Shown here: one piece after another, positions 8,510 through 51,112 of the stretch
Layout of the letters: each line of letters opens with the position of its first letter
How positions within the stretch are numbered: the first letter of the stretch is position 1
DNA from: a virus
Taxonomy: Duplodnaviria > Caudoviricetes
Length of the DNA stretch: 64,000 bases
Virus record (IMG/VR): IMGVR_UViG_3300025502_001322
Location: 32,001-96,000 of that record
Reading direction: 5' to 3' (one strand)
Program-made: the position numbers and the translations under genes
Notes under the pieces: generated by a model
Told to the model about the DNA's origin: nothing
Seen by the model: the letters and a program-made list of their open reading frames with translations, nothing else
Database searches by the model: none

Positions 8510-9241
8510 ATGAAAGATAACTTATTAGACCTAGTATCGCATACATTTGCACTTGGTAATGTAAACAAACTTAAAGTGCAAGGTACTGCAACAGAAACAA
8601 AAATTAATTCTATAGCAGAAGACAAGACTGTTATTATCGAGGGTACATTTAAAAAGCCTATTAAAGAGCTCGAAGGCACGTTTGGTATGCCTAACCTGAG
8701 CAAACTTAATATTATTTTAGGCATTCCAGAGTACAAAGACAACCCTAACATTTCAATTAGTACACAAGACAAAAACGGTGAGACTGTTAAAACAGGTATT
8801 AGTTTTGAGAATGCCGAAGGTGACTTTAAAAACGATTACAGATTTATGAGTAAAGAAGTTGTTGAGGAACAACTTAAAACAATTAAGTTTAGGGGTGTTA
8901 AATGGAATGTAGACTTCAGTCCTACCGACGCCAGTATCCAGCGTTTTAAATTTCAGACACAGGCTAATGCAGAACACCCAAGTTTTATTGCTAAGTCAGA
9001 AGGCAACGACTTAAAATTCTTCTTTGGTGAAGCAACAAGTCACGCAGGTAACTTTGTGTTTGCCGCAGATATTGAAGGCAAAGTTACCAAGCCTTGGTCA
9101 TGGCCCGTAGCACCTATTACAGCAATACTGGGTCTTATTGGTGACAAAACTATCAAATTTAGTGACGAAGGAGCGGCTATGCTTACAGTAGATAGCGGTA
9201 TTGCAGTATATAACTACATTATTCCAGCACTTACCAAGTGA
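8510..9241 (+). CDS. probable DNA polymerase sliding clamp (gp45-like)
   Basis: 243 aa, two-domain alpha/beta pattern, near polB in a T4-like context; no catalytic motif to confirm. Confidence 0.55.
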   Translation: MKDNLLDLVSHTFALGNVNKLKVQGTATETKINSIAEDKTVIIEGTFKKPIKELEGTFGMPNLSKLNIILGIPEYKDNPNISISTQDKNGETVKTGISFENAEGDFKNDYRFMSKEVVEEQLKTIKFRGVKWNVDFSPTDASIQRFKFQTQANAEHPSFIAKSEGNDLKFFFGEATSHAGNFVFAADIEGKVTKPWSWPVAPITAILGLIGDKTIKFSDEGAAMLTVDSGIAVYNYIIPALTK

Positions 9242-9269: not shown

Positions 9270-10022
9270 GTGACGTACTTCATTGACAAGATAAGAGTTG
9301 AACATTCTTCTAACTCAGGAACAAGCATACTACATGGATACATTCCTAGTGTAGGACTCACTTATTATAGTGGACAAGGACACACAGTAGGACAATGTTA
9401 CAAGTGTCCTGACCAACCGGTAGTGTATATTAATACACCAAAGTGTGCGAGTAGTTTTATGAAGACTCATTTACTTAATCTAGGGTGGGAAAATAAATTT
9501 TTACAACTAGGAGACTGGGTTGCGGATAATCCCTCTGATATGATGCCAGTCAGCGACGTAGAAAAGTTCATTGTTGTTATGAGAGATCCTTATGATAGAT
9601 GGTTAAGTGGTATAGCAGAATACTTTGGTGAATATTTTAACGATCACGAAGGCATATTTGAATACTTGAATAATCCGTTAACTCTAAAGTTATTAGCACA
9701 AAGAGTATCGTTTGATGATCATACTGAAAGCCAATTATTCTTTTTACAGAATGTACCGTTAGAAAAATGTGTGTTCTTAAGACAGGAACAAGGGCTTAAC
9801 TTTAAAATTTCAGAGTACTTCAGAACTGTTCTAAATATACCTAACAATATATCAAGTGAAAAGCCAGTGCATGTCTCAACAGGCGGTTCCTGGAACGGCA
9901 GAGTAAAACAACATTTAAATAGACTTTTAAGAGAAAACAACGTAGAATACATGAATGTCTTAAAGACTATGGAACAAGATTACGAATTTATGGATAACAT
10001 AGTGCATTTTTATGGCGATTGA
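9270..10022 (+). CDS. sulfotransferase family protein
   Basis: 5'-PSB YINTPKCASSFMK, 3'-PB VMRDPYDRWLSG, DDHTESQ. Confidence 0.75.
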   Translation: MTYFIDKIRVEHSSNSGTSILHGYIPSVGLTYYSGQGHTVGQCYKCPDQPVVYINTPKCASSFMKTHLLNLGWENKFLQLGDWVADNPSDMMPVSDVEKFIVVMRDPYDRWLSGIAEYFGEYFNDHEGIFEYLNNPLTLKLLAQRVSFDDHTESQLFFLQNVPLEKCVFLRQEQGLNFKISEYFRTVLNIPNNISSEKPVHVSTGGSWNGRVKQHLNRLLRENNVEYMNVLKTMEQDYEFMDNIVHFYGD

Positions 10023-11484
10023 ACAAGACAACTTGTCTGCTAAACAAAAAGACTACGCAGTCTACTTGCCTGCGCTTAGTAGTTTTTATACGGCATTTGT
10101 AGGTAAACAACAAGAGACAGGCAACTATGTAGATCCTGCTAGAGTGCCCAGTAGTTTCCAAAATGGTGTGGAAAGTCTAAACTTCCTTAATGAAAAAGAA
10201 GGAATGTTTACCTACAATCAAGCATTATATAGTGCAGGACATGCAGTGTTAGATGTTGCTAAAGACCATCCTAAAGACTGGATGGTAACACGTCGTGACA
10301 GGAAAAAGAATCTCATCGTAGGTGATTCAGGTGGCTTTCAGATTGCAAAGGGCACCTGGGAAGGCAACTGGCCCGACACTACAGATAAAGCTACAAGTAA
10401 AAAACGTAAACAGGTGTTGACCTGGTTAGACTCAGTTTGTGATTATGGAATGACACTTGATATTCCTACTTGGACTGTGCATGACAAAAAAGCAAGTGCA
10501 AAGACAAATATTAAAACATACCAACAGGCTGTCGACATAACACAATTTAACAACGAGTACTTTATTAAGAACAGAACAGGTGCCTGTAAATTCTTAAATG
10601 TGCTTCAAGGCAGTAACCACACTGATGCTGACCATTGGTATAGTTTAATGAAGAAGTACTGTGACCCAAAACAGTATCCCAATGACCACTTTAACGGTTG
10701 GGGCATGGGAGGTCAGAATATGTGTGATCTGCATCTTATTCTAAAACGTCTTGTAACGCTACACTATGATGGTTTACTACTACCCGGCACACATGACTGG
10801 ATGCATATCTTAGGTACAAGTAGACTAGAATGGGCATGTGTCCTAACAGATACACAACGTGCGGTTAGAGAAAATTACAACCCACAATTTACTCTAAGTT
10901 TTGATTGTGCGAGTCCCTTCTTAGCAACAGCCAACGGACAAGTGTACACTGTAAACGAACATCCAGACCGGGGTAAATGGGTATACAGAATGCGTCCCTG
11001 TGTTGATGACAAGAAGTATCATAACGATACACGACCATTTGTGTCAGCAGTGTTACAGGATGGGTTATTTGATAACTTTACTGACAGCATAGTAACCCAA
11101 GGCATACAGTTGAAAGATGTCTGCATTTATGCCAACGGTGACCTCAATAAAATTGGCAAAGAAGGCAAGACCTCTTGGGATAGTTTTAGTTACGCCATAC
11201 TGATGGCACACAATGTCTGGATGCACATTAAGGCAGTACAAGACTCAAATGTTCTGTATGACCAGGGCAAGATGCCAAGAATGCTAGTAAATGACCTGGG
11301 TGCTGGCACTGCTATTAGGGACATAATTAACGAAGTGTTTGCACAGCCCACTAAAGAAAAGAGCCTTGCAATTATTGAAAAACATAGCACACTCTGGATG
11401 CAAGTAGTTGGAAACAGAGGATTCTCAGGCAAGAGAGCTCTAAACGCTAATACACAGTTTAGCAATTTGTTTGAAATGGCTTGA
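10012..11484 (+). CDS. divergent TGT-fold transglycosylase (DpdA-like)
   Basis: GDSGGFQI, TLDIP, NVLQG, GGQN, HILG, SFDCASP motifs of the TGT/DpdA family; folE and queE nearby. Confidence 0.8.
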   Translation: MAIEQDNLSAKQKDYAVYLPALSSFYTAFVGKQQETGNYVDPARVPSSFQNGVESLNFLNEKEGMFTYNQALYSAGHAVLDVAKDHPKDWMVTRRDRKKNLIVGDSGGFQIAKGTWEGNWPDTTDKATSKKRKQVLTWLDSVCDYGMTLDIPTWTVHDKKASAKTNIKTYQQAVDITQFNNEYFIKNRTGACKFLNVLQGSNHTDADHWYSLMKKYCDPKQYPNDHFNGWGMGGQNMCDLHLILKRLVTLHYDGLLLPGTHDWMHILGTSRLEWACVLTDTQRAVRENYNPQFTLSFDCASPFLATANGQVYTVNEHPDRGKWVYRMRPCVDDKKYHNDTRPFVSAVLQDGLFDNFTDSIVTQGIQLKDVCIYANGDLNKIGKEGKTSWDSFSYAILMAHNVWMHIKAVQDSNVLYDQGKMPRMLVNDLGAGTAIRDIINEVFAQPTKEKSLAIIEKHSTLWMQVVGNRGFSGKRALNANTQFSNLFEMA

Positions 11485-11509
11485 CAGCCTAGTCGAGTAG
11501 CCTTATAAT
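11481..11509 (+). promoter_or_regulatory. consensus sigma70 promoter (GAGT class)
   Basis: TTGACA-17-TATAAT; GAGT 5 nt before the -10. Confidence 0.8.
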
Positions 11510-11542
11510 AACACAATACTAATCATACGTAAGGTGTAGGTT

Positions 11543-13966
11543 ATGAAGCTACTAGTAATAACTGTTTGTGCAACCCTACTGTCAGCATGTGGCGGAGGTG
11601 GTGGGGGCGGTGGGGGCAATCTTCGCCAAGGAAGTCCTGTTTCTTCTCCCACACAATCATCAGCTGATGTAGACTTTGCAACACCGATTCGAGCTGGCAC
11701 CTACGAGCTGTTTACATCTGGTAGTACCAGTACTCCTGTACAAGACATATTTGTACAGGACTTAAATGCTGACTCTAAAGAAGAAGTTATTATTGCAGGT
11801 AGACAGAGTGCAAGCGCATTTAGTGCTTGTACCGGTGATCTAGACTGTAAAAAAGCCGCATACCAAAACAGTCAAATTAGTATATATGGCTTTAATGCCA
11901 GTAACATACTGGTTAACCAAACAGGTGATTGGTTTACGGGTAATGATCATCAAATAATAGGATCAGAGCCTAGCCTAAGGTTTGGTGACTTTAATGGCGA
12001 CAACAGTATAGACATGGCAGTGGGACATTCTACTGACATGGAACACTTTGGTCCTTTAATCGTATATAAAAACACAGGCGCAAGTAGTTTTAACAGAGAA
12101 GACCATGATATTGGTGACAAGTGGATGCACGATATCGGGGTAGGCGATGTTAACCAAGATGGGTTTGACGATGTTATTGTTGGTGGTTACAGTAACATGG
12201 TTGTTATGTTGGGCGGAGCGGCAAACTTTACACAACTAGACACAACACATAGTGGCAACAGTGGTTTGGCTATAGGAGACTTCTTGGGTGATGGGTCAGT
12301 AACATTTGTGTTTGTTGATTCGACCGGTGATGGCGATGTAGATGACGACACCACGTTAATGAGTTTTAGTCAAACAGGTGTTAATACAGGAGAGTTTACT
12401 AGAATATCAAGACTACCCAGCTCACGTTTTGAACTCCCTTTATATGACGAATTGTTTGATCCCACACAAAACGAACGAGGTCACGACATTAGAGCAGTAC
12501 CGTTTGACTTCAACAACGACGGCTTACTGGATGCTGTGGTTGTCAGCGTTAGCACGGGTCCATTGGATAATAAGAACAGAACAGAAATACAGTTCTTACA
12601 AAATGCAGGAGCAGGCAACTTCATTGACGTAACAGATGACTTACGTGTTGGTTGGGATTTATTTACAAACGGTGACTACAATCCACAGTTGGTTGATGTT
12701 AACGATGACGGCTTAATGGATATTTTATTAAGTGCGCAAAACTTTGGCAATTCTGAATCTACGAGGGTATTACTGCAAACAACTGAAGGCAAGTATGTAC
12801 AAAGTTTTACAGACGTATTTGCTGACTTTGCAACAACAGTACAGGGGTTAGAGACCGAAAAAAATCAGGTACTTAATACTGTTAGATTCGTTACCGGTCC
12901 TGGTGGTGCCAAGTTTCTTGTTACAGCAGTTACACTTAACGATGGCAGTAATGCACTTTACACAACTAAACTAGGCAATGCAGGTGGCACCACAGCACAA
13001 GCCAGCATTGCCCTAATACAACAGGTATGGCCTTACATAACAGACGAACTAGCCGCACAGATCCTAGCTGGTACAGCATTTACAGACTTTGAAGGCTTTG
13101 ATCCTGCTGTGCATGGCTTTGGAATTATTGACATAGAACGTGCATTGTTGCCAGTAGGTGAATTACGCCTGCCGCTAGAAGGCAGGGATGGTACCGTTGC
13201 AATTACAGGCTTACTAAGTGGTGTTAACTTTGGTAATTTAGATAGAGTACAGGCAGTAGACAGTTTAGGTAGAGGATTTGAGATTGGCATTAACAGTATG
13301 CATAATCCTCAGCAACAAGATATCTGGTATGACATTAGTTTTACTAATGACAGTTACACCAGAATGGACTACAACTTTAACACCGTGTATGATAATGGTG
13401 TTGTCAATTACAGTCCAACAGATGAGTCTGGAAACTACACTGTGGGACTTAAGAACATTAAACTACTGAAAGACTGGTACTTACAGGGACAATACACTGT
13501 ATTAAATGCACAAAATCCCTGGTTTAACATGTCTGGTATGTGGGGTACTATAAACAGTTCTACTACATTTGAAACTGTGGCAACACATCTACACAACGAC
13601 TTTACCTTTAACCTTGGTACTATGTATACTAACACAGACTTTGAACCAGGATTGGTTACTGATGTAAGTTCGCTAACTAGTGTGTGGTCAGAAGTAAGTT
13701 GGCGACGTGCAGGTTTCAGAGCCGCAGTGGGCACAATGCCTTATTTGGTAGACGGTGGTATAACATTAAGATTGCCCACAAGTATTGACTTTACTGGCTC
13801 AATACAATATACTGAATTTGACTACAAAATAAGAAACACATTTGCAGAGTATGTTAGTTTAGGTTATAAGAAGCAACTTAACTTTAACACCAGTGTTAGC
13901 GTAGATGGTTACACTAACGGATATGGATTTAGTAAAACACAATTGAAATACAACTATACATTTTAA
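11543..13966 (+). CDS. large lipoprotein with FG-GAP/VCBS repeats and a probable C-terminal beta-barrel
   Basis: Lipobox LSAC plus poly-Gly; repeats GDFNGD, GDVNQDGFDD, DFNNDGLLD, DVNDDGLMD; alternating beta-strand C-terminus ending in F. Confidence 0.8.
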   Translation: MKLLVITVCATLLSACGGGGGGGGGNLRQGSPVSSPTQSSADVDFATPIRAGTYELFTSGSTSTPVQDIFVQDLNADSKEEVIIAGRQSASAFSACTGDLDCKKAAYQNSQISIYGFNASNILVNQTGDWFTGNDHQIIGSEPSLRFGDFNGDNSIDMAVGHSTDMEHFGPLIVYKNTGASSFNREDHDIGDKWMHDIGVGDVNQDGFDDVIVGGYSNMVVMLGGAANFTQLDTTHSGNSGLAIGDFLGDGSVTFVFVDSTGDGDVDDDTTLMSFSQTGVNTGEFTRISRLPSSRFELPLYDELFDPTQNERGHDIRAVPFDFNNDGLLDAVVVSVSTGPLDNKNRTEIQFLQNAGAGNFIDVTDDLRVGWDLFTNGDYNPQLVDVNDDGLMDILLSAQNFGNSESTRVLLQTTEGKYVQSFTDVFADFATTVQGLETEKNQVLNTVRFVTGPGGAKFLVTAVTLNDGSNALYTTKLGNAGGTTAQASIALIQQVWPYITDELAAQILAGTAFTDFEGFDPAVHGFGIIDIERALLPVGELRLPLEGRDGTVAITGLLSGVNFGNLDRVQAVDSLGRGFEIGINSMHNPQQQDIWYDISFTNDSYTRMDYNFNTVYDNGVVNYSPTDESGNYTVGLKNIKLLKDWYLQGQYTVLNAQNPWFNMSGMWGTINSSTTFETVATHLHNDFTFNLGTMYTNTDFEPGLVTDVSSLTSVWSEVSWRRAGFRAAVGTMPYLVDGGITLRLPTSIDFTGSIQYTEFDYKIRNTFAEYVSLGYKKQLNFNTSVSVDGYTNGYGFSKTQLKYNYTF

Positions 13967-13974
13967 ATAATATT

Positions 13975-14271
13975 ATGAAAACAATTATCTTAGCAACACT
14001 ACTTACAATATCAACTCCTACATGGGCTAACCAAGCATGTATGGGGTACTCTAGAATGGCAGAAGACATCGCAACAATGCTAGTAGAGGGCATTAACCCC
14101 GACAACATTAACTTTGTCGACCCAGGTAACCCAGTGGACAAAGGTGCACAAAACTCAGGCAATGGGTTGGTTAGGCGCATACAACAAATGTTGGCTAATC
14201 AGAGTACACCAAGAGAGATCAGGGACATTATATTACAAGATTGTTTAAACCCAAACGATGTCAAATCTTAG
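13975..14271 (+). CDS. secreted hypothetical protein
   Basis: Signal peptide MKTIILATLLTISTPTWA; two Cys. Confidence 0.65.
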   Translation: MKTIILATLLTISTPTWANQACMGYSRMAEDIATMLVEGINPDNINFVDPGNPVDKGAQNSGNGLVRRIQQMLANQSTPREIRDIILQDCLNPNDVKS

Positions 14272-14280
14272 GAGAATAAA

Positions 14281-14454
14281 ATGTTATCTAATAGACTTGA
14301 AGCACTCTATGAAAAACACCAAGAGCTAGAACAAGAACTTTGCTTTCTAGTTAACGGACATCCGCATGTTCAGGAACAGAGAGTAAAAACAATTAAGAAA
14401 CAGAAGTTGCTGATTAAGGACGAACTACAACATCTTAAAACTGTGGATAAATGA
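14281..14454 (+). CDS. DUF465/YdcH-like small coiled-coil protein, 57 aa
   Basis: Manual translation MLSNRLEALYEKHQELEQEL...IKKQKLLIKDEL; SD AGGAG. Confidence 0.7.
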   Translation: MLSNRLEALYEKHQELEQELCFLVNGHPHVQEQRVKTIKKQKLLIKDELQHLKTVDK

Positions 14455-15332
14455 AAAGCATTGTAGTCGGGTTAGGTATAGGCAATCTATATAAGTCTGT
14501 CTTAGAACACATTGGTAATGAAGTAGTAACTGTTGACACTGACAGTGCCAAGAATCCTACTTATACCGACTTATCAAAATCTCTGACATCTCAAGAGCTA
14601 AGTTTAAATGGCAAGTTTGTTACGGGACACGTATGCACACCAAACTTTACACATTATAGTGTAGCAGATACAATAGCACCCTACTGTGATATTGTATTTG
14701 TAGAGAAGCCAGGTGTTAGAACTGCTGACGAATGGCAACAGTTAGTAGATAGGCATCCTGACACAAAGTTTATACTTGTTAAAAATAACATGTGGCGTAG
14801 TAATATCAAAGAACTACGTGAACATGCGCAACAAGCAGAATCTGTTGAGCTTAATTGGATAAACAAAGATAGAGTACCTAGTCCGGGTACTTGGTTTACC
14901 ACGATGGACCTCGCATTTGGTGGTGTTAGTAGAGACCTTATGCCACATCTACTAAGTTTATATATGGCATTTGATGACGATTGGCGTCAAGCAGAACCAA
15001 CACAAGCACTAGCACACAGACGTTATGAGTTGTCAGAATTATCCAACACTGATTACGGAGAAGTAAATAATAATGGCGTTTACAATGTAGACGACTTATG
15101 TAAATTTTCTATTAACAAATATAAACTAACCGCCGATTGGCGTGACACACAATCTGATAAACGTAATATAATTTTCTCTAACCCGGACTACACGTTTAAA
15201 CTAGGATTATGCCCAGAACTAGCATACGAGAATATGATACGAGACTGTATCTATAATCGTAACACAGAAGGTTTCTGGCAAGATCAACTGGAAAAAGACT
15301 TGTGGATACACAAACAAATTCAAAACTTATAA
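14451..15332 (+). CDS. Gfo/Idh/MocA-family NAD(P) oxidoreductase
   Basis: VVGLGIG, CTPNFTHY, FVEKPG, DLMPH. Confidence 0.8.
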   Translation: MKSIVVGLGIGNLYKSVLEHIGNEVVTVDTDSAKNPTYTDLSKSLTSQELSLNGKFVTGHVCTPNFTHYSVADTIAPYCDIVFVEKPGVRTADEWQQLVDRHPDTKFILVKNNMWRSNIKELREHAQQAESVELNWINKDRVPSPGTWFTTMDLAFGGVSRDLMPHLLSLYMAFDDDWRQAEPTQALAHRRYELSELSNTDYGEVNNNGVYNVDDLCKFSINKYKLTADWRDTQSDKRNIIFSNPDYTFKLGLCPELAYENMIRDCIYNRNTEGFWQDQLEKDLWIHKQIQNL

Positions 15333-16225
15333 TGGATGTCAAACTATTAGTTACAGACGGTAACGGTACATTTGCCGAAACGGTCTGGTCCAAGCCTGAA
15401 ATCACCGATACTGAGATAGAAGTTAAAGCCATTATGACTGGCGTGTGTCGTAGTGATATAGACATGATGACTGGTCAGTTTGGTCCGTTGCCGATACACA
15501 TGAGCGGGCACGAAGGCTTAGGGCAAGTTACTAAGATTGGTAAGCACGTTACAGACGTTAATGTTGGTGACATTGTCGCTACTCGTGGTGAACCTGCTTA
15601 TGCAGATTACTATAACGTAAAGCGCAACGAGTATGTGATTGTGCCAGAAGCAAGTCCGGACTACATATTAGAGCCCGTTGCATGCGGTATAAATGTTGTC
15701 GAACAGAACTTACAACAGATACAGTTACGCCAAGATGAGGGTTCAAGACTGCTTATCAAGGGCAGTGGCTTCCTAGCATATTGTGCATATACCACGTTAC
15801 AACAACGTAATGTAGACTTTGATATAGATGTTGTGGGCTCAAGTAACCAACATCTATGGGGCGACAAGTTACAGACTGCTCCTACTGGAGAGTACGATAT
15901 TATCATCGACCTTAAGGGTGACACTAAAACATTTACAGACCCCATATATAAAGAGAATGCGCTAATTATCGTAGGCTCCAACATGCAGGTTAATATGAAC
16001 TTAAACAACTTGTTATGGAAAGCAGTAACAGTAACATTCCCAAGTCCACGTAACCCCAACTTTATCAAATGTATGAAATTAGCAGAGGTATGGATATCAA
16101 AAGGTGTGTTAGAAGTTGACTCATTTTGGACAACCAGTTATAATAGACATACAGACTGGCAAAAAGCATTCGAAGATGGGGTCAACAGACCAGTAGGATA
16201 CAGCAGAGGATACATAGAATGGTAA
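15332..16225 (+). CDS. zinc-binding (MDR) dehydrogenase
   Basis: GVCRSD, GHEGLG, LEPVACG, IKGSGFL; start moved to the TAATG-coupled ATG. Confidence 0.85.
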   Translation: MDVKLLVTDGNGTFAETVWSKPEITDTEIEVKAIMTGVCRSDIDMMTGQFGPLPIHMSGHEGLGQVTKIGKHVTDVNVGDIVATRGEPAYADYYNVKRNEYVIVPEASPDYILEPVACGINVVEQNLQQIQLRQDEGSRLLIKGSGFLAYCAYTTLQQRNVDFDIDVVGSSNQHLWGDKLQTAPTGEYDIIIDLKGDTKTFTDPIYKENALIIVGSNMQVNMNLNNLLWKAVTVTFPSPRNPNFIKCMKLAEVWISKGVLEVDSFWTTSYNRHTDWQKAFEDGVNRPVGYSRGYIEW

Positions 16226-16587
16226 AAGTTTTTTTACTTAGTGTTTTAGTTGTTTGTTGCAGTATCGCTAATGCACAAGAACTGCCAAATGCAGATCAGG
16301 AAACATTGGAAGATCCGGAAACATTGCATAAGCCTGTAGAGTGCTATTCTGCAGAGAGTATTGTTAAATTAACAGAAGAGAAGGGATTAATACTATTTTG
16401 GCAAGGTCCAAACTTAAAAGATAATTACCCAGATAACACAATAGTAGTAATGTTAGACCCCAACGCTAACGGCTGGGTGGTATTTGAAATGACTTTACAA
16501 GTCGCATGTATACTTGGCTACGGTCAAAGTTTTTGGTTGTTTGATCAACTGTATATGTTCTTAGACCCTTTACAGGAAACTGACTAA
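16219..16587 (+). CDS. secreted hypothetical protein
   Basis: Signal peptide; paired Cys. Confidence 0.6.
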   Translation: MVKVFLLSVLVVCCSIANAQELPNADQETLEDPETLHKPVECYSAESIVKLTEEKGLILFWQGPNLKDNYPDNTIVVMLDPNANGWVVFEMTLQVACILGYGQSFWLFDQLYMFLDPLQETD

Positions 16588-17021
16588 TGGAAGAACAACG
16601 AGCAATGGCAGTGGCAGAGAAACTACTCAAGCAAGCAAATAATGCAAGCAAGATGATATGGGTAACTTTTCGTAAGGAAGGTATTCATTGCTATCCTGGT
16701 GCAGACACAGATCCTAAACTAGCAACAGGTGACTGGGACGATGTTAGTTTTTTAGGTGTACCACACAGACACATATTTCACTTTAAAGTCTGGATAGAAA
16801 TATTCCATGACGATAGAGACATAGAATTTATACAGTTTAAGCGTTGGCTACAACGTTTATATGAAAATAGCGTATTAGAGTTAGACCACAAGTCATGTGA
16901 AATGATATCTAATGATCTATTCTTGCAAATTGCAACTCGTTATCCAAGACGTAACATCTGGATTGACGTTAGTGAAGATGGCGAAAACGGAAGTTTCATA
17001 AAGTACCACAAGGAGAATTAA
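16587..17021 (+). CDS. QueD-related T-fold protein with LxxxHRHxF motif (DpdL-like, putative CDG decarboxylase)
   Basis: FLGVPHRHIFHF, DDRDIEF, SCEM, VSEDGENG; lacks the canonical QueD CxxxHGH. Confidence 0.7.
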   Translation: MEEQRAMAVAEKLLKQANNASKMIWVTFRKEGIHCYPGADTDPKLATGDWDDVSFLGVPHRHIFHFKVWIEIFHDDRDIEFIQFKRWLQRLYENSVLELDHKSCEMISNDLFLQIATRYPRRNIWIDVSEDGENGSFIKYHKEN

Positions 17022-17022
17022 G

Positions 17023-17235
17023 ATGGCTAAGCCAAAAACAGGCATGACGCCCAAAGTAACACGTATTTTTGAAGATTTAGAGGCATACGCAGATTACTGC
17101 AGGATGCACTATTGCAAGTTTGACGAAGCAGATATGTATCGCAGAGGTACTAATTGGGAACGTATGCAAAACAAACTACAACGTGGGAATAGAAACGACA
17201 ACGGCAACTACAACTATAAGCAGAGGCGTCGTTGA
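17023..17235 (+). CDS. hypothetical protein
   Basis: 70 aa, SD GGAG. Confidence 0.6.
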   Translation: MAKPKTGMTPKVTRIFEDLEAYADYCRMHYCKFDEADMYRRGTNWERMQNKLQRGNRNDNGNYNYKQRRR

Positions 17236-18320
17236 TATATCTAGTAGACCTAGAAGGTTTGGATACACGTTATACTAAACAATGGAAACACCATGTGCCA
17301 GATCTCCTACGGAGAGAACTGACGGAGGAAGTCACAGTAATTAGTGGTGGTGATACTCCACAGGCAACAACACCAGGTGCGTTCTTAAACTTTGGTGGTA
17401 CCAATGTGTACAAGTCTAAACAACTAGAACAGATAGGTGAATTATTTTGTGCTGGTAAAGTTAAAGACGGTGACTACTTCCTTTATACCGATGCTTGGAA
17501 CCCTACTGTTATACAGTTAAAGTATATGGCAGAGTTGTTGGGTGTCAACATAAAAATAGGTGGTATGTGGCATGCTGGTAGTTATGATCCAGAAGACTTT
17601 TTAGGAAGACTTATTGGTGACAAGCCTTGGGTCAGACATGCTGAAAAAAGTATGTACGAAGTGTTTGATCATAACTTCTTTGCTAGTGTGTTTCATATCA
17701 AAATGTTTCACAACACACTCAATTATCCTGAGCGTATTATATGGGCTGATGGAATGTTTAGTGATGGCAAGATAACTCGCACTGGTTGGCCCATGGAGTA
17801 TATGGTAGAAACTCTTGCGCCATACAGTAATTTAGAAAAACGAGACATAATACTTTTCCCACATCGTATTGCTCCAGAAAAACAACCAGAGATATTTAAA
17901 GACCTGCAAAAGTCCCTGCCACAATACAAGTTTGTGATGTGTCAAGAACAGCAACTTAGCAAAGACGAGTACCATACTTTATTAGGGTCGGCTAAAATTG
18001 TGTTTAGTGCTAACTTGCAAGAAACACTTGGTATAAGTTGGTATGAAGGCGCATTAGTTAATGCTGTTCCCATGGTGCCTGGCAGGCTAAGTTACAGTGA
18101 AATGGCTGTAGACAAATTTAAGTATCCAAGCGAATGGACTACTAACTGGGACAGTTACCAGAAACACAAGACTGATCTATGTGATGCCATTACTATAGTT
18201 ATGGAAAACCACAGTGACTATTTGCCAGCACTGGAACAACAATTAACGAAACTTAAAGACGAGTACTTTGGATGCAGTAAATTAATTTCAACTATTAGAG
18301 ACAGGAGCAAGCATGCGTAA
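17232..18320 (+). CDS. GT-B (GT1/GT4-like) glycosyltransferase
   Basis: C-terminal FPHRIAPEKQP...LQETLGISWYEG...PGRLSYSEM donor-binding pattern. Confidence 0.75.
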   Translation: MIYLVDLEGLDTRYTKQWKHHVPDLLRRELTEEVTVISGGDTPQATTPGAFLNFGGTNVYKSKQLEQIGELFCAGKVKDGDYFLYTDAWNPTVIQLKYMAELLGVNIKIGGMWHAGSYDPEDFLGRLIGDKPWVRHAEKSMYEVFDHNFFASVFHIKMFHNTLNYPERIIWADGMFSDGKITRTGWPMEYMVETLAPYSNLEKRDIILFPHRIAPEKQPEIFKDLQKSLPQYKFVMCQEQQLSKDEYHTLLGSAKIVFSANLQETLGISWYEGALVNAVPMVPGRLSYSEMAVDKFKYPSEWTTNWDSYQKHKTDLCDAITIVMENHSDYLPALEQQLTKLKDEYFGCSKLISTIRDRSKHA

Positions 18321-18879
18321 GAAATATTATTCATGGCGGGACGTTGAAACCATATGTACAGAGCTAGTTATAGACATGTATAAATCTAACTACAAGCCGG
18401 ACATCGTAGTTGGTCTCACACGTGGTGGTAATATCCCTGCTACTATTATTAGCAATATGTTAGATGTTCAATGCGAGTCACTAAAAATTAAACTACGAGA
18501 CAACAAGCCTGGTGAGGAGAACGAAACTAATTGTCAACTTGCACGACAAGCATTTGGGTATGTGTCGGAAACTGAACAAGTAGTATTGAAAACACGATGG
18601 GATATCTCACAACGAAAAAACATTCTTATTGTGGACGACATTAATGATTCTGGTGCTACATTTAATTACCTTAAACATCAGTGGCAACAATGTTGTTACC
18701 CTGAGGAATCCAGTTGGGGGACTGTCTGGGAACACAATGTTAGGTTTGCAGTACTAACGGAAAACTTGTCTAGTAATTTCCAACACGTCAGCTATCACGG
18801 CGACGAAGTAAATAAAATGGAAGAAGATATTTGGTTAGTTTACCCTTGGGAAAACGTAGGTCGATATGGAAACGTATGA
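18313..18879 (+). CDS. type I purine phosphoribosyltransferase (XGPRT-like)
   Basis: VGLTRGG, PRPP loop ILIVDDINDSGAT, WLVYPWE. Confidence 0.85.
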   Translation: MRKKYYSWRDVETICTELVIDMYKSNYKPDIVVGLTRGGNIPATIISNMLDVQCESLKIKLRDNKPGEENETNCQLARQAFGYVSETEQVVLKTRWDISQRKNILIVDDINDSGATFNYLKHQWQQCCYPEESSWGTVWEHNVRFAVLTENLSSNFQHVSYHGDEVNKMEEDIWLVYPWENVGRYGNV

Positions 18880-19486
18880 TGAGGACGTCAGTCCCTGGCA
18901 ACCTATACGTGATTTCGAACAGGAACTAGCCGCATACACTGGCGCACCTTACGCAGTAACAACTGATAGATGCACCCACGCAATAGAAATAGCACTTAGA
19001 TTACGACCACCCACAGAACCTGTTAGATTTACAGCATTTACCTATGTGAGTGTTGTGATGACCATGCACAAACTCGACATAGCTTACGAGTTGATAGACG
19101 AGCAATGGCGTGGCAAATATCAATTTCATAACACTAATATATGGGACTGTGCTAGGTTCTTAGAGCGTGACATGTACGAACCAGGACAAACCCAATGTTT
19201 AAGTTTTGGTAGGACCAAACCACTACCATTGGGCTTTGGTGGTGCTATATTAACTGACGACAAAGAGCTATACGAACGTGCAAGCCGCATGCGTTACGAT
19301 GGCAGAGACTTGTTTAGTCACCAAAAGTGGTCAGAACAAACAGACTGGGAGCCAGGCTTCCATTACTATATGACTCCAGAACAGTGCGAAGTAGCAGGCT
19401 TCCGTCTGGTCAACGAACTCTTAACAATTCAAGAAGATCACCATTACAACTACCCAGACTGTAGACAACTTAATATTAAACATTGA
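18866..19486 (+). CDS. compact DegT/DnrJ-family PLP aminotransferase
   Basis: FEQELAAYTG, TDRCTHAIEIAL, WDCA, LSFGRTKPL.LGFGGA. Confidence 0.8.
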   Translation: METYDEDVSPWQPIRDFEQELAAYTGAPYAVTTDRCTHAIEIALRLRPPTEPVRFTAFTYVSVVMTMHKLDIAYELIDEQWRGKYQFHNTNIWDCARFLERDMYEPGQTQCLSFGRTKPLPLGFGGAILTDDKELYERASRMRYDGRDLFSHQKWSEQTDWEPGFHYYMTPEQCEVAGFRLVNELLTIQEDHHYNYPDCRQLNIKH

Positions 19487-19511
19487 CTTGATTATCTAAA
19501 TATCGTATAAT
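19483..19511 (+). promoter_or_regulatory. sigma70 promoter for folE
   Basis: TTGACT-17-TATAAT. Confidence 0.7.
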
Positions 19512-19554
19512 ACAACATTAAAGAGACTCCCCCTCTTGTTAACTCGGAGATACA

Positions 19555-20235
19555 ATGAAACTATCAACAGCAGAAGTAATTAGACAACGTCTTAAAGTCG
19601 CAGGTGTTAGATTCCATTCTAACGACAATATCAGTGAATATATTAAAGAAGGTGAACTAGACAGTCTTCAAACAGAAGTACAAGATGCAATGCAGAATGT
19701 ATTAGATGCACTCGTTATTGACACAGACAATGACCACAACACACAGGAAACTGCTAAACGTGTTGCTAAGATGTTTGTACATGAAACTTTCAATGGTAGG
19801 TATGTGCCTCGTCCAAGAATAACAAGTTTTCCCAACATGGGTTACAAGAGTTTGTATGTAAGCGGTCCCATTAGCGTTAGGTCAACTTGCGCACATCACT
19901 TTCAGAATATTGTAGGTAAGTGTTGGATTGGTGTACTGCCAGAAGATGAAGTTATCGGACTAAGCAAGTTTAATCGTCTTGTGCATCACATTGCAGAGCG
20001 TCCTCAAATACAGGAAGAGATGACCACACAGATTGCAGAAGAATTAATTAAGTATGCAAAGACTCCTAACATTGCTGTTATAGTTAAAGCAGAACATCAC
20101 TGTATGACTCATAGAGGTGTTAAAGAACATGAGTCAGATATGACTACTGCTATTATGCGTGGTGCGTTTGATGATCATGCTCCTCTTAAGAAAGAGTTTT
20201 ACGATATCGTTATGAACATGAAGGGTCATAGATAA
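19555..20235 (+). CDS. folE: GTP cyclohydrolase I
   Basis: ETAKRVAKM, STCAHHF, GLSKFNR, RPQIQE, HHCMTHRGV. Confidence 0.95.
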   Translation: MKLSTAEVIRQRLKVAGVRFHSNDNISEYIKEGELDSLQTEVQDAMQNVLDALVIDTDNDHNTQETAKRVAKMFVHETFNGRYVPRPRITSFPNMGYKSLYVSGPISVRSTCAHHFQNIVGKCWIGVLPEDEVIGLSKFNRLVHHIAERPQIQEEMTTQIAEELIKYAKTPNIAVIVKAEHHCMTHRGVKEHESDMTTAIMRGAFDDHAPLKKEFYDIVMNMKGHR

Positions 20236-20250
20236 CCTCTATTACTGTAG

Positions 20251-21036
20251 ATGTATAAACGAGCAATCATAACACTAAGTCATATTGAACGTGTTACAGA
20301 CACCATAGACGTAGAGTTTAAATTAAACAACCACAGTTATGCACAGAAGTGGGCAGAGTGTATAAAAACTATTGAAGGTCCCCCCAACGACTTTGGCTTC
20401 CCTAGACGATTAGAAGAAGATCCTGACATATATAAAGCGAGGATTAGCACACATATAGAATCCATTCCTGAATTAGACTTTAGTGTGATTAATCAAGACT
20501 CAGTCAATGCAATACACAGGTACATAGAAGACAATCACAAACAAGCAGACAAACTATTAACACTACACAACGACATACACTATTTGGAGAGTTTATGGGA
20601 AGGGCCAAGAGAAGTAGTGTTTAAAAAGGTACAGTGGGTTCCGCCAGGTAAGAGAATTAAAATGGAGCCAGATGATTACAAGTGTTATACAACTGAACCT
20701 TGTGAGAATTACCTAGAAGCAGACTTTAGTCATGTAGGCAGAACACCACACAATACTTGGTACTACAAAGATGACACAAGTTTGTCAACAAGTTGTCGTA
20801 TACAGGAAGACGTTACTAGTGGTTGTATGTGGTGGTTTACAGACAACAGTCATATATACGAAAACAGACACGGGTTTGTGGAATGGTTTTATCAACACCA
20901 AGCATACTTCCTTCGTAAATATAATATAAATTGGCCACATGATCCACGTGTGTGTTATGGTAGAGTCATACTTGCAACTGCTAAAGAGTTGCCAGGCCCA
21001 GAGTGGGACTTTGTTCAACAATTAAGAGTAGAATGA
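20251..21036 (+). CDS. hypothetical protein (distant paralog of 62274-63428)
   Basis: Shared pattern LNN..YAQKW / NAIH / LHNDIHYLES / DFSHVGRT. Confidence 0.55.
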   Translation: MYKRAIITLSHIERVTDTIDVEFKLNNHSYAQKWAECIKTIEGPPNDFGFPRRLEEDPDIYKARISTHIESIPELDFSVINQDSVNAIHRYIEDNHKQADKLLTLHNDIHYLESLWEGPREVVFKKVQWVPPGKRIKMEPDDYKCYTTEPCENYLEADFSHVGRTPHNTWYYKDDTSLSTSCRIQEDVTSGCMWWFTDNSHIYENRHGFVEWFYQHQAYFLRKYNINWPHDPRVCYGRVILATAKELPGPEWDFVQQLRVE

Positions 21037-22373
21037 AATATCTAATACGTTATAACCCTATAGCAGATTGTGATCCAGAATACCAAGAGCGTATCAAGGA
21101 CATTGCACAGTTTCATCAACAGTTGCCGTTCGATACTGACTTTCAGGTATTAGAAAGTTCTGATTTAGACCAAGCATTTGCAGAAGTATCGGCAGATTCT
21201 GAATGGGTCGTTGTTGTTAGTCTTGGGCACTGTAGTCAAGACAGAAACATGTACGACAAAGCCATTGCCGTTTGCAAAGAAAATAATGTAAAATTAATGT
21301 GCCACCTACTGGACTTTAAAGATCAGTACATACATTTCCATCCGCAGTTTTTTGTCATACACTACCCAAGTTGGATTAAGGCGGGGAGACCTCGCTTTGG
21401 CTACGATGGCGAGGAGCAACAGTTTACAGGACTCGATTATATTCCCAGTAAAGACACGTATCACGATGATTACACACCTGTTAGCCTTAGACCTGGGTTG
21501 CGACGGCGAACATTTCAAGTTCATGAAATGCAAACTGGTGCTTGGGTAATTAAAAACTTCTTAGACAAGGGGTTTAGTATTATTAACGTAACACAAAAAC
21601 TAAGAGATAATACGTTTCACTTATATCCAGACATAGAGTCCGACGAGTTTTATAATTTTTTAAAGACAGGTGAATATACTGGGTCACAGTCAAGTCAGGA
21701 GTGGTATGTTGGGCTTATTAAACATCTAGCACGTAACGTAAAACACCAGTTCTATCCTCTTAACACAGAACCTGTTGGTAATGACAAGATCGATTTTAGT
21801 ATAAACAACTTCATATGTGTAGCAAGCGGCTTAAAACCTTGGTTACTACCAATGTATTATGCTAACGAAACAGACCCTTTGAGTATTAATTTTTGCGATT
21901 TTTCAGATGCCGCGGTGCAATTTCAACAGCATTTAAGCACTTGGTCGGGCGAAGTTGGAACCTTTAATGCAACTGTACAGCAATTTCTTAAAGAACACCC
22001 TGAGTTTGAGAGTTGTGATCCTCCAGGCGCATACGACACCGAGCTTGTTCGACAGTTAACTAATATTAACATAGCCCCTAAGGTTTTTCAGGCTGTCTGG
22101 AGTCAGATACCCAAGGATCAGCCATGCAGTTTATTAAATTTGTATACCGAAGAAGGACAGGATCAGATAATTAACATAGTTGCCAACAATGATACCACAT
22201 ACGTGTGGTTAAGCAATGCATTCTATATGGAGTATGCATTAGTTACTGTTGGTAAAAAGAAGGTATACGAATATAGACAACGTCTTATAGATGGGCTAAC
22301 CGCAACTGGTAAGCGTTTTGTGTTAGACTTGATGGATCCTTGGCAACAAGGACCGGTAACCTTCAATGACTAA
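21033..22373 (+). CDS. hypothetical protein, possibly glycosyltransferase plus methyltransferase-like domains
   Basis: Long ORF; CVASGLKP and NFCDFSDAA Rossmann-like segment; function unresolved. Confidence 0.45.
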   Translation: MKYLIRYNPIADCDPEYQERIKDIAQFHQQLPFDTDFQVLESSDLDQAFAEVSADSEWVVVVSLGHCSQDRNMYDKAIAVCKENNVKLMCHLLDFKDQYIHFHPQFFVIHYPSWIKAGRPRFGYDGEEQQFTGLDYIPSKDTYHDDYTPVSLRPGLRRRTFQVHEMQTGAWVIKNFLDKGFSIINVTQKLRDNTFHLYPDIESDEFYNFLKTGEYTGSQSSQEWYVGLIKHLARNVKHQFYPLNTEPVGNDKIDFSINNFICVASGLKPWLLPMYYANETDPLSINFCDFSDAAVQFQQHLSTWSGEVGTFNATVQQFLKEHPEFESCDPPGAYDTELVRQLTNINIAPKVFQAVWSQIPKDQPCSLLNLYTEEGQDQIINIVANNDTTYVWLSNAFYMEYALVTVGKKKVYEYRQRLIDGLTATGKRFVLDLMDPWQQGPVTFND

Positions 22374-23048
22374 TTGTCGAAAACGTTCAGCAACTCTATA
22401 ATCGTCTGGGTAACCATGTATAATCATATGATATCTATCATGTTCACTGTCATTAAAAACAGCATGTTCAAAGTTGTTGGCAAAAAGAAATATACTACCC
22501 ATTTGATTGAATGGTACAGTACCTTGGTCTTTAACTACCAATTTGCAGCCGTCAGGATTCCATAAACTTATGTTTACTGCATTTAATCCGTATGTGTTGC
22601 CGTCAGTATGTGGTAAAATATATCCGCCCGGCTTAACCTTCATAAAACGAACACGGTGATAAACATCATATGGAAAGTGTTGTGCTAACCACAGTTTCGT
22701 ATAAGGAGCATCTATGTCTGTCCAGTCATATGGTACATTTCTATTTGACAAATCCTTGTATTCCGTATATAATTCATAATGATCCGTATAACTTTGACTA
22801 ATACCATGAACACAAACACTGGACCAACCGCTACTGTCGTTATCCCTATGTTCGTGATAAGTAGCACGTTCGGCTTCTGCATGCAACACCGGCCATTGTG
22901 CATGAATATAAAGAGGAATATAGGGCAGGTTACTTTCTGTCACAATCCATTCGTAGTCAGCATCTCTAGGAAGTTGACTAACGTCAGGACTGCAATCAGA
23001 ATTACTAGCAATAAATGTTTCGAGTTTGTCCACAAAATTATTTACCAT
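22323..23048 (-). CDS. aspartyl/asparaginyl beta-hydroxylase-like 2OG-Fe(II) dioxygenase
   Basis: RVRFMKVKPGGYILPHTD...EHAVFNDSEHDRYHMIIH. Confidence 0.8.
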   Translation of the reverse strand: MVNNFVDKLETFIASNSDCSPDVSQLPRDADYEWIVTESNLPYIPLYIHAQWPVLHAEAERATYHEHRDNDSSGWSSVCVHGISQSYTDHYELYTEYKDLSNRNVPYDWTDIDAPYTKLWLAQHFPYDVYHRVRFMKVKPGGYILPHTDGNTYGLNAVNISLWNPDGCKLVVKDQGTVPFNQMGSIFLFANNFEHAVFNDSEHDRYHMIIHGYPDDYRVAERFRQLVIEGYRSLLPRIHQV

Positions 23049-23082
23049 AATACAAGTAGTCTAGATATAAGCAGAGGTTAAA

Positions 23083-23958
23083 ATGAAATTTAAAGTAAGT
23101 GAAATATTTTACAGTCTACAGGGAGAGGGGAGATTTGTAGGAGTACCCAGTGTATTCTTAAGACTGTTTGGGTGTAACTTCGAATGTCCAGGTTTCGGTT
23201 TGCCTAAAGGTAAGAAGACTGAAGAAGTCGACAACATAATTAAACTGGTAGAACAAGATCCCGACAAGTACAAACGACTAGAAGACCTTCCACTTGTTAC
23301 AACAGGCTGTGATAGTTATGCAAGTTGGCATCCAAAGTTTAAAAAGTATTCGCCAACTTATGACATAGACACACTTGTTGGTAAATTAACCGACTTACTC
23401 CCTAATAACACATGGCGACAAGATAATGGATCAGACATACACCTAGTTGTTACTGGTGGAGAACCATTATTAGGCTGGCAACGTATATACTCGCACTTAC
23501 TAGAACATGACAAAATGAGTAACTTGCAGAATATAACGTTTGAGACAAACGGCACACAAAAGTTACATGATGACTTTAAGGCATTCTTTCACACATGGAA
23601 GAATGATTATCATAACTACCACAACTTAACATTTAGTGTTAGTCCTAAACTAAGTGCTAGTGGTGAAGCGTGGGACGATGCTATCATGCCAGAAGTAGTT
23701 GCTGAGTATAACTGGATAGGCAACACGTATTTGAAGTTTGTAGTAGAGAATGATGAACACATGGCTGAAGTAGATGAAGCTGTTAATGCATATCGTAAAG
23801 CAGGAGTAAACGGTAACGTTTATATTATGCCTGTTGGTGGGGTAGCAGAAGCATATAATCAAAATAACAAACGGGTAGCCGAATATGCACTAAGTAAAGG
23901 TTACAGATACAGTCCCAGATTGCACGTAGATATCTGGGGCAACAGTTGGAGTACTTAA
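23083..23958 (+). CDS. queE: 7-carboxy-7-deazaguanine synthase (radical SAM)
   Basis: EIFYSLQGEG, FLRLFGCNFEC...GCDS, VTGGEPLL, ETNGT, SPKL, SPRLHVDIWG. Confidence 0.93.
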   Translation: MKFKVSEIFYSLQGEGRFVGVPSVFLRLFGCNFECPGFGLPKGKKTEEVDNIIKLVEQDPDKYKRLEDLPLVTTGCDSYASWHPKFKKYSPTYDIDTLVGKLTDLLPNNTWRQDNGSDIHLVVTGGEPLLGWQRIYSHLLEHDKMSNLQNITFETNGTQKLHDDFKAFFHTWKNDYHNYHNLTFSVSPKLSASGEAWDDAIMPEVVAEYNWIGNTYLKFVVENDEHMAEVDEAVNAYRKAGVNGNVYIMPVGGVAEAYNQNNKRVAEYALSKGYRYSPRLHVDIWGNSWST

Positions 23959-50591: not shown

Positions 50592-51112
50592 TTAAGGCTA
50601 TATTTGCAATAGACGCATTCGGCAACATGGGATTTAATAACAAGTTGCCTTGGCCTCCGTGTAAAGAAGACTTTGCTTGGTTTGCGAATAATACCAAGGA
50701 CAAAACAGTCATCATGGGTCGCAAAACGTGGGACAGTGTTGGCATGCCTACCCCGCTACCTGGTAGACGTAATATTGTTGTTTGCAAAAATAGATATTAT
50801 AAAGCCGCAGGTGCAGAAGTCTGGACCGACAACTGGCTGGAACGTCTAGAACGTTTGGGTCATAATGACCTCAATGATGTCTGGGTAATAGGCGGAGTTA
50901 GTCTATTAGAACAGGCTAGGCCTCTTATTAAACAGTTTTATGTCACTAGATTTAAAGGTGTCTACCGAGCAGATACTACGTTAAACACACGAACTTATTT
51001 TGAAGGCTTACAATGTCGCACAATAGTGCCCAGTAAGGAAAACAATCAAATAAATTTTGAGGTGTGGATTCCATGGTTAAGCCAGGCTACAGGGTGGGGA
51101 TCCAATGGTTGA
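50588..51112 (+). CDS. folA: dihydrofolate reductase
   Basis: MGFNNKLPW, IMGRKTWDS, LPGRRNIV, VIGG. Confidence 0.92.
   Translation: MIKAIFAIDAFGNMGFNNKLPWPPCKEDFAWFANNTKDKTVIMGRKTWDSVGMPTPLPGRRNIVVCKNRYYKAAGAEVWTDNWLERLERLGHNDLNDVWVIGGVSLLEQARPLIKQFYVTRFKGVYRADTTLNTRTYFEGLQCRTIVPSKENNQINFEVWIPWLSQATGWGSNG

Follow-up and report, generated by a model that had tools for sequence, protein, structure and literature searches.

A 64,000-nucleotide stretch of a jumbo phage genome (hereafter the window; bases 32001-96000 of the 289,070-bp IMG/VR virus record IMGVR_UViG_3300025502_001322) carries within its replication block a set of genes which we read, at what we judge to be even chances, as a DpdL-type, QueC-independent 7-deazaguanine DNA-modification module that also comprises a glycosyltransferase (GT) and sugar-altering enzymes. 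The two chemical parts of this reading differ in strength, as it is very probable that the phage DNA contains 7-deazaguanine, whereas the suggestion that this deazaguanine carries a sugar varying between lineages is plausible at somewhat less than even chances. Slightly more tentative is our broader proposal that a large phage group, comprising thousands of environmental clusters and the cultured phages PA5oct, ACP17, Phosso, X1, BCSR5 and BUCT-ZZ01, swaps guanine for sugar-bearing 7-deazaguanine, with the sugar diversified between lineages and the lineage of the window combining both of the tailoring gene sets described below, possibly for an amino sugar. Coordinates are those of the window unless a genome position or another locus is named.

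An earlier note on this DNA, made from its letters alone, had proposed a QueC-less 7-deazaguanine system here and named nine genes, all of which proved to be intact + strand open reading frames (ORFs) with the starts it listed. The system itself stands. FolE (GTP cyclohydrolase I; 19555-20235, + strand; PF01227 4e-45, phrog_2197 3e-52), the radical-SAM (S-adenosylmethionine) enzyme QueE, which is 7-carboxy-7-deazaguanine (CDG) synthase (23083-23958, + strand; phrog_2076 2.5e-55, full length), and DpdL are encoded in the window, and a search of the rest of the genome identified QueD at genome positions 273129-273545, ~180 kb past the end of the window (54% identity to the QueD of Acidovorax phage ACP17). 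QueC and QueF, noted as missing from the window, had no match anywhere in the 289-kb record, which is estimated to be 80% complete.

The 144-residue QueD-like protein that had been described as a "T-fold HRH protein" (16587-17021, + strand) is DpdL, a predicted CDG decarboxylase, because its motif LGVPHRHIF fits the signature LxxxHRHxF that in DpdL replaces the QueD motif CxxxHGH (PMC10516641), and because in tblastn it has 54% identity to the DpdL of ACP17 (1e-35) and 30% to that of phage phiST (CGPG_00067, 7e-9). A hidden Markov model (HMM) of the family also identified both of these proteins (2.6e-50 and 2.4e-36, respectively), and the context expected for DpdL is found, with FolE, QueD, QueE and DpdA present and QueC absent. 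Alignment of the DpdL family with six phage QueD sequences by hhalign reached just 66% probability over 41 columns, and therefore the basis of the assignment is the motif together with the homology to DpdL proteins already published. Cui et al. showed that the DNA of Cellulophaga phage phiST has 2'-deoxy-7-deazaguanine (dDG) instead of dG, and proposed the QueD-like T-fold protein DpdL as a CDG decarboxylase acting with a distant TGT homolog (PMC10516641). FolE, QueD and QueE with DpdL and DpdA had thus already been published as a dDG pathway (PMC10516641), and the QueC-less core, in which the earlier note saw novelty, is a known kind of pathway. The dpdA and dpdL genes of ACP17 gave no dDG in Escherichia coli, leading Cui et al. 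to suggest that additional enzymes may be required (PMC10516641). In Vibrio phage Bakedbeans, DpdL forms the C-terminal third of the 383-residue gp176 (locus L098, 5212-6363), whose N-terminal ~260 residues have no Pfam match; this fusion partner could point to a co-substrate or a partner enzyme of DpdL.

The transglycosylase of the module is predicted to be P0001, a DpdA-like protein of 490 residues (10012-11484, + strand), which on the evidence of its modeled fold and catalytic motifs would be a DNA guanine transglycosylase placing 7-deazaguanine in the DNA. Its earlier identification as TGT/DpdA-like is upheld by that fold and those motifs despite the lack of any HMM match. Neither P0001 alone nor a 47-sequence profile of its family had a match in Pfam, PHROGs, NCBIfam or the PDB sequences, and the Pfam TGT model PF01702 matched neither P0001 nor any product of a six-frame search of the 289-kb record, and one of the 47 relatives at E 0.043. 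All statements on the fold refer to the AlphaFold2 model made with the 47-sequence alignment (pLDDT 92, pTM 0.91), as the model from the single sequence had a pLDDT of 34. The best 50 of its 190 Foldseek matches (E<=0.001) were all TGT, the best with an E of 4.5e-8, and VIA-align aligned ~300 residues with TGT structures at Z 18-19 and a root-mean-square deviation of 4.4-4.8. Residues invariant in the 47 family members are D105-S-G-G-F-Q, D150, G229, H265 and S-F-D298-C, among which we take D105 and D298, by motif, to be the counterparts of Asp102 and the nucleophile Asp280 of the Zymomonas mobilis TGT.

Comparison of the P0001 family with phage DpdA2 proteins (ACP17, KVP40, Moby, X1, pf16 and BUCT-ZZ01) by hhalign gave 97.5% (E 6.9e-12, 197 columns), and the HMM of the P0001 family (A1) matched ACP17 DpdA2 at 2.8e-8. 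The DpdA2 HMM did not pick up the PA5oct homolog of P0001, and BLASTP showed no similarity between P0001 and phiST gp042 (259 residues, taken as the phiST DpdA3). From these sequence comparisons, in which remote homology to DpdA2 is clear, we read the P0001 family as a sister subfamily of DpdA2 instead of a member of it. It is a large family, with 919 clusters at 50% identity and, as a lower bound, >7,900 at 90% identity. Among cultured phages it is carried by PA5oct-like jumbo phages of Pseudomonas (37% identity) and by Sinorhizobium phage Phosso, with a partial match in Vibrio phage 2.275.O. The PA5oct homolog lies six genes upstream of QueE. The DNA of PA5oct resists five restriction enzymes, which its authors read as modified G, naming QueE and a PTPS and no transglycosylase (PMC12191111), and this DNA was already known to be attacked by END nucleases.

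To place these genes in context we examined 79 IMG/VR loci retrieved with the DpdA-like protein, counting toward each frequency only loci with sufficient downstream sequence. The conserved order is a 243-residue protein, the DpdA-like protein, an optional pair of a Gfo/Idh/MocA-like oxidoreductase and a Zn-dependent alcohol dehydrogenase (ADH), a 175-residue protein, DpdL, a small basic protein, the GT, an optional short DegT-like protein (mini-DegT), FolE, a purine phosphoribosyltransferase (PRTase) and QueE. DpdL is present in 48 of 49 loci, FolE in 27 of 28 and QueE, within the 10-kb flank, in 21 of 28. That the GT and the PRTase go with this DpdA clade, a point that the earlier note proposed to test, is borne out by their presence in 43/43 and 25/28 loci, respectively. 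The optional genes hold fixed positions, the Gfo-like/ADH pair between DpdA and DpdL and mini-DegT after the GT. Among 38 DpdA-anchored loci with >=7 kb of downstream sequence, 7 had only the Gfo-like/ADH pair, 18 only mini-DegT, 12 neither and 1 both. Their distribution on the tree of the DpdA-like proteins is clade-structured (6 changes, against 17 with shuffled labels), and the long-branched lineage of the window falls inside the DegT-bearing clade, having gained the dehydrogenase pair in addition.

The reverse scans, for which alignments were used since single-protein scans with mini-DegT or the Gfo-like protein gave only close relatives, led back to the same clusters. For the Gfo-like family (453 IMG/VR matches), 75/76 loci had the DpdA-like gene upstream, 68/68 had the Zn dehydrogenase downstream and 43/44 had both DpdL and the GT, and for the mini-DegT family (>588 matches) the GT, DpdL and the DpdA-like gene were within 10 kb in 43/48. 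The independent distribution of GT, aminotransferase and dehydrogenases, set beforehand as a refutation, was therefore not seen. The earlier note had also cast the Gfo-like protein and DegT as an oxidation-transamination pair, and a fixed pair is not supported, as the two sets occurred together in only 6/36 Gfo-anchored loci and in one of the 38 DpdA-anchored loci above. Because the Gfo-like protein, the Zn dehydrogenase and mini-DegT are near-confined to such clusters and yet rarely found together, we conclude that they belong to the module but not as a fixed pair.

The product of 17232-18320 (+ strand; 362 residues) is, judged by sequence, a GT4-like (GT-B) glycosyltransferase and a fixed member of the module. 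Its C-terminal half contains the E-x7-E and donor-phosphate motifs of such enzymes, with E264-x7-E272, R212 and P215-E-K-Q218 invariant in 26 sequences. PF00534 (Glycos_transf_1) matched 9 of 26 relatives weakly (best 2.5e-4) and occurs in 29-100% of the members of its ESM Atlas neighbor clusters, while the GenBank records of Phosso and PAC2 label the homologs glycosyltransferases; a profile of the GT had no match to PDB sequences. We also considered a queuosine mannosyltransferase of the QTMAN/GTDC1 type; QTMAN_N (PF12038) had no match at E<=10 in a six-frame search of the genome and none among 26 GT relatives, though the GT may be a remote homolog.

GT homologs lie within a gene or two of DpdL/DpdA in PA5oct, Phosso, ACP17, Xanthomonas phages X1/BUDD, Burkholderia phage BCSR5 and cyanophage BUCT-ZZ01. 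The PA5oct homolog is EST35_0317 and that of ACP17 is ASD50404. Gene orders around the GT differ among these six cultured-phage lineages, which with the environmental loci make seven lineages in total. In BUCT-ZZ01 two GTs flank DpdA2-DpdL, the second being on the other side of DpdA2, and no GT was found in the QueC-type clusters of pf16, KVP40 and Moby. The GT family comprises >7,900 clusters at 90% identity (a lower bound). Two homologs (L070, 16764-17855, and L083, 13729-14847) have one in-frame stop codon each, for which sequencing error, decay or recoding are possible causes. Between DpdL and the GT is the small basic protein (17023-17235, + strand; 70 residues, pI 9.7), which is found in 41-46 related loci at a constant position and has a family median pI of 9.9; isoelectric points could not tell DNA-binding roles from others.

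Several genes could alter a sugar. The Gfo/Idh/MocA-like NAD oxidoreductase (14451-15332, + strand; 293 residues) scored 22.6 bits against PF01408, under the cut-off of 24, but it and each of the 15 relatives aligned have the GxGxxG, EKP and D-x3-H motifs; its best PDB matches were DgpA (2.2e-4) and WbpB. The Zn-dependent dehydrogenase, of the medium-chain dehydrogenase/reductase type (15302-16225, + strand, with the likely true start at the ATG at 15332; ADH_N 1.9e-11), has Cys/His/Glu zinc ligands and a nucleotide loop, GSGFLA, and the ligands and a GxGxxA loop are conserved. Mini-DegT (18866-19486, + strand) is 206 residues long, compared to ~360-400 for the DegT/DnrJ/EryC1 family, and its ORFs in 83 loci are 192-225 residues. 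It matched PF01041 in two segments (66.4 bits versus a cut-off of 19.8), with profile positions ~88-160 and 250-360 having no counterpart, and WbpE was among its matches. The pyridoxal phosphate (PLP) lysine, K118 in S-F-G-x-x-K, and also D94 showed no variation among 19 sequences. The earlier naming of this gene as a DegT aminotransferase is hence right as to family membership and the PLP lysine, but not as to the full fold-type-I architecture, and aminotransferase activity is uncertain because the ~200-residue protein lacks the C-terminal domain.

Two further optional genes associate with mini-DegT in the DpdA-anchored loci. One encodes a class I SAM methyltransferase (7193-8449, + strand; 418 residues; Methyltransf_12/25/23/11), found in 45/80 related loci and traveling mainly with the mini-DegT clade; the other, in 32 loci, encodes a protein weakly assigned as sulfotransferase-like (9270-10022, + strand; 250 residues; PF03567 3e-4, below cut-off), and this gene shares its last 11 nt with the beginning of the DpdA-like gene. 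In relatives the same locus also holds other sugar genes, namely phosphomannomutase, cytidylyltransferase-like, NAD epimerase/dehydratase (26/79 loci), UDP-glucose-dehydrogenase-family and FAD/NAD reductase genes, in addition to HIT, SAM synthetase, radical SAM and IMPDH (IMP dehydrogenase)/GMP-reductase-family genes.

The purine PRTase (18313-18879, + strand; 188 residues) is a type I 6-oxopurine enzyme (PF00156 3.6e-13, 49.5 bits versus a cut-off of 26.3; NF006613 XPRT) whose phosphoribosyl pyrophosphate (PRPP) loop reads ILIVDDINDSGAT. Archaeal 6-oxopurine PRTases (Sulfolobus GpT-1/2) and yeast HGPRT were its best PDB sequence matches. Homologs occur in BUCT-ZZ01, where the gene is annotated as xanthine-guanine PRTase, and in PA5oct; none was seen in the ACP17 module. 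In five loci an IMPDH/GMP-reductase-family gene adjoins the PRTase. Some relatives (L018, L058 and L082, e.g., L082, 14958-16007, and L017, 18456-19556) have such a gene immediately ahead of the PRTase and a SAM synthetase gene immediately behind QueE. These genes look like a supply for the guanine nucleotide and SAM needs of the pathway, or alternatively the IMPDH/GMP-reductase-family gene could represent a step like that of ToyE/TubD.

The gene identities, the fold and the co-occurrence described above were observed; the chemical steps are our inference, most of all that there is a sugar and where it sits. By the established chemistry of their families, FolE, QueD and QueE would convert GTP to CDG, which DpdL, as predicted in the literature, would decarboxylate to 7-deazaguanine. 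The TGT-fold protein, going by its fold and catalytic residues, would swap guanine in DNA for this base, and the PRTase most likely recycles the displaced guanine to GMP and on to GTP, closing the cycle. For the GT, the most likely role is to attach a sugar to the deazaguanine, whether this is already part of DNA or still a free base. Since 7-deazaguanine offers no hydroxyl, the sugar would need to be bonded to N2 or to the electron-rich C7/C8. The Gfo-like/Zn-dehydrogenase pair, mini-DegT, the methyltransferase and the sulfotransferase-like protein, which are optional and vary between lineages, would alter that sugar. Its diversity would then be the work of a Gfo-like 3-oxidoreductase together with a Zn dehydrogenase, of a PLP enzyme of half the usual size, of methyl- and sulfotransferases and, among relatives, of complete nucleoside diphosphate-sugar pathways.

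The module lies between a family B DNA polymerase gene upstream (4506-7169) and a 5'-3' exonuclease gene downstream (25272-26261), and megablast of the region against GenBank phages gave no match. The earlier note described most of its genes as co-oriented, and the nine are indeed all on the + strand, but they do not form a single operon. Three perfect sigma-70 consensus promoters (TTGACA-17-TATAAT; 11481-11509, 22745-22773 and 25236-25264, + strand) occur within 19.5 kb, with two more having 11/12 matches (16116-16144 and 19483-19511). Three of the five are directly before inserts specific to the lineage of the window, namely an FG-GAP gene (11543-13966; 807 residues), a gene for a secreted-looking protein of 122 residues with a signal peptide (16219-16587) and the ORF at 22779; of the other two, 19483 is before FolE and 25236 before the conserved exonuclease gene. 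As the FG-GAP and 16219 genes, FolE and the unit of 22779 with QueE each have such a promoter, the stretch comprises several transcription units, and the promoter-bearing inserts have the appearance of morons that entered the module with promoters of their own. Also found only in this lineage are genes at 13975-14271, 20251-21036 and 21003-22373 (456 residues), and ESM Atlas look-ups for the latter two returned nothing informative.

The list of genes in the earlier note missed one, on the opposite strand between the 456-residue gene and QueE, which encodes a 241-residue 2-oxoglutarate (2OG)/Fe(II) oxygenase of the Asp/Arg-hydroxylase family (22323-23048, - strand; PF05118 1.1e-10, above cut-off). 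It has no homolog among the 80 related loci. A hydroxylase within a base-modification cluster could conceivably make a sugar acceptor. Immediately upstream of the DpdA-like gene is the conserved 243-residue protein (8510-9241, + strand; phrog_12062 3e-27), present in 80/80 related loci; its PA5oct homolog, EST35_0314, is annotated as structural by electrospray ionization tandem mass spectrometry (ESI-MS/MS), and it is probably a virion protein outside the chemistry. The slot occupied by the 122-residue protein in the window holds, in relatives, the 175-residue protein (c3), whose gene immediately precedes that of DpdL in 47/49 environmental relatives (e.g., L008, 4189-4716, and L069, 13592-14119; 68 other loci) and is upstream of DpdA2 in ACP17 (L003, 6216-6701). 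This protein is absent from the genome of the window, its close relative L005 and PA5oct, has no Pfam match and is unrelated to the annotated "glycosylase" of Phosso. Further along the window, a thymidylate-synthase-family gene (51111-52013; 341 bits) is 1.3 kb upstream of a full-length DegT gene (53365-54369) at the start of a large sugar locus, and a second full-length DegT gene is at genome positions 206608-207711. The gene just upstream of QueD (L001, 64-1290; genome ~271.7-272.9 kb) encodes a protein of 408 residues that has a curlin repeat and a PA14 domain; it probably serves as an adhesin or decorates the virion, outside the pathway.

A number of points weigh against our reading. The TGT zinc motif CxCxxC...H is absent from P0001 and its family consensus, the decarboxylase activity of DpdL is so far a prediction of the literature (PMC10516641), and the GT of the window has itself no Pfam match, a genome search with Glycos_transf_1 also giving none. 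Most of the remaining points bear on an explanation that we consider rather unlikely but the strongest of the rivals, namely that the DNA has plain dDG, as in phiST, and that the GT, oxidoreductase and aminotransferase genes act on another DNA base, on virion proteins or on host envelope sugars, being co-located only through shared expression timing or a recombination hot spot. Plain dDG is what phiST makes, reaching full replacement with no GT (PMC10516641), and no GT is near DpdL in phiST, Rhizobium phage RHph_I1_18, Aeromonas phage Ahp1 or Vibrio phage Bakedbeans, four of the eleven DpdL lineages whose neighborhoods were examined. Phage replication blocks gather unrelated inserts, several of which, with their own promoters, are in this very region, and the GT could instead serve the large sugar locus that lies apart from the module and holds the thymidylate-synthase-family and full-length DegT genes. 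Lastly, 7-deazaguanine has no obvious acceptor hydroxyl, and a sugar would have to be joined to the base by an N- or C-glycosidic bond, for which no precedent in DNA is known. Against the plain-dDG explanation stand a GT that stays beside DpdL/DpdA in seven lineages despite rearranged gene orders, Gfo-like, ADH and mini-DegT families that are found almost only in such clusters, and the fixed positions that these optional genes hold in the module.

The PRTase suggests a different route, which we consider improbable, in which modification would precede replication: the enzyme, acting like TubE, would join CDG or 7-deazaguanine to PRPP, and the deaza-nucleotide would be reduced, phosphorylated and polymerized into DNA, while the TGT-fold protein would have another role or only a secondary one. 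In favor of this, TubE has a similar size and is specific for CDG (PMC6112128), the PRTase is near-constant in the module and recurs in BUCT-ZZ01 and PA5oct, and the IMPDH/GMP-reductase-family genes adjoin it in five loci as ToyE/TubD do. Base exchange, however, requires no nucleotide route, and the TGT-fold protein, its catalytic aspartates preserved, is universal, whereas the PRTase was not seen in the ACP17 module and has ordinary 6-oxopurine salvage enzymes as its nearest solved relatives; the guanine freed by base exchange also offers it an obvious salvage role. FolE, together with a T-fold protein, dehydrogenases and a GT of ~360 residues, resembles the biopterin glucoside pathway, which raises the thought that FolE, a PTPS-like T-fold protein, reductases and the GT make a glycosylated pterin cofactor, as in cyanobacteria, with no DNA modification at all; one carrier, BUCT-ZZ01, does infect Synechococcus elongatus PCC 7942. 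We rejected this pterin glycoside as exceedingly improbable since QueE and the TGT-fold protein, which have no role in its synthesis, are fixed members of the module, and in addition DpdL is without the catalytic cysteine of PTPS/QueD, the dehydrogenases are optional and the locus is within a DNA replication block.

If the GT does act on the deazaguanine, the product would be a new class of DNA hypermodification and the first glycosylated purine in DNA. We know of no sugar-bearing purine in DNA, and the DNA deazaguanines described so far have, to our knowledge, only small C7 substituents. Such a modification would parallel the glucosyl-hydroxymethylcytosine of T-even phages, and lineage-specific sugars would suggest an arms race with modification-dependent nucleases. 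It could be common in nature, because the DpdA-like and GT families are each very abundant in metagenomes, and could matter for sequencing, restriction mapping and phage therapy candidates. Such a modification may also explain the failure to reconstitute dDG from the dpdA and dpdL of ACP17 alone, and several of the carrier phages are in culture.

The closest known system is the dDG pathway of phiST, predicted also for ACP17 (Cui, Hutinet et al., NAR 2023, PMC10516641), which has in common with the module FolE, QueD and QueE without QueC, a DpdL with the LxxxHRHxF signature, a TGT-superfamily transglycosylase and replication-gene neighbors. They differ in that the transglycosylase of the window belongs to a separate, longer subfamily missed both by the Pfam TGT model and by BLAST from DpdA2/DpdA3, and in that the module has a fixed GT4-like GT and purine PRTase and optional sugar tailoring, whereas phiST lacks all of these, having MazG and an ATPase in their place. 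P0001 shares with the DpdA2 of Vibrio phage nt-1/KVP40 and of ACP17 (ASD50403; PMC6884629) the TGT fold and alignable DSGG[FL]Q, LD-IP, HxLG and SxD motifs, at ~20% identity, with no pairwise BLAST detection beyond E 7e-4 and with an extra C-terminal region in P0001; unlike the module, the nt-1 enzyme works with the QueC pathway (dPreQ0/dG+) (PMC6884629).

Outside DNA modification, the tubercidin and toyocamycin clusters pair a purine PRTase of ~190 residues (TubE/ToyH) with FolE, QueD and QueE homologs (PMC6112128), and the IMPDH/GMP-reductase neighbors seen in some relatives add to the likeness, which is by description; the nearest solved relatives of the window PRTase are salvage 6-oxopurine PRTases, and the antibiotic clusters have no TGT-fold protein. 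HuiG of huimycin biosynthesis N-glycosylates a 7-deazapurine base with GlcNAc (bioRxiv 10.64898/2026.04.15.718813), a precedent for a sugar on a nitrogen of a 7-deazaguanine-derived base, but on a free base in an actinomycete secondary metabolite and not in DNA. The Gfo-like protein and mini-DegT match the UDP-sugar 3-dehydrogenase and aminotransferase WbpB/WbpE and the C-glycoside 3-oxidase DgpA weakly (E 2e-4 to 0.05), and unlike WbpB/WbpE they seldom co-occur, mini-DegT being about half of normal length.

The T4 alpha- and beta-glucosyltransferases act on 5-hydroxymethylcytosine in DNA and offer a functional analogy, that of a phage GT-B enzyme working with a base-modification pathway whose sugar varies between related phages. 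The likeness is functional; the T4 acceptor is a hydroxyl, which 7-deazaguanine does not have, and the GT of the window has the GT4-type E-x7-E motif. Searches of the published literature turned up neither a description of glycosylated deazaguanine in DNA nor later studies of DpdL or DpdA3. Relative to that literature, the core of the module is known, and the GT-coupled, sugar-tailored version of it, with its own DpdA subfamily, is new.

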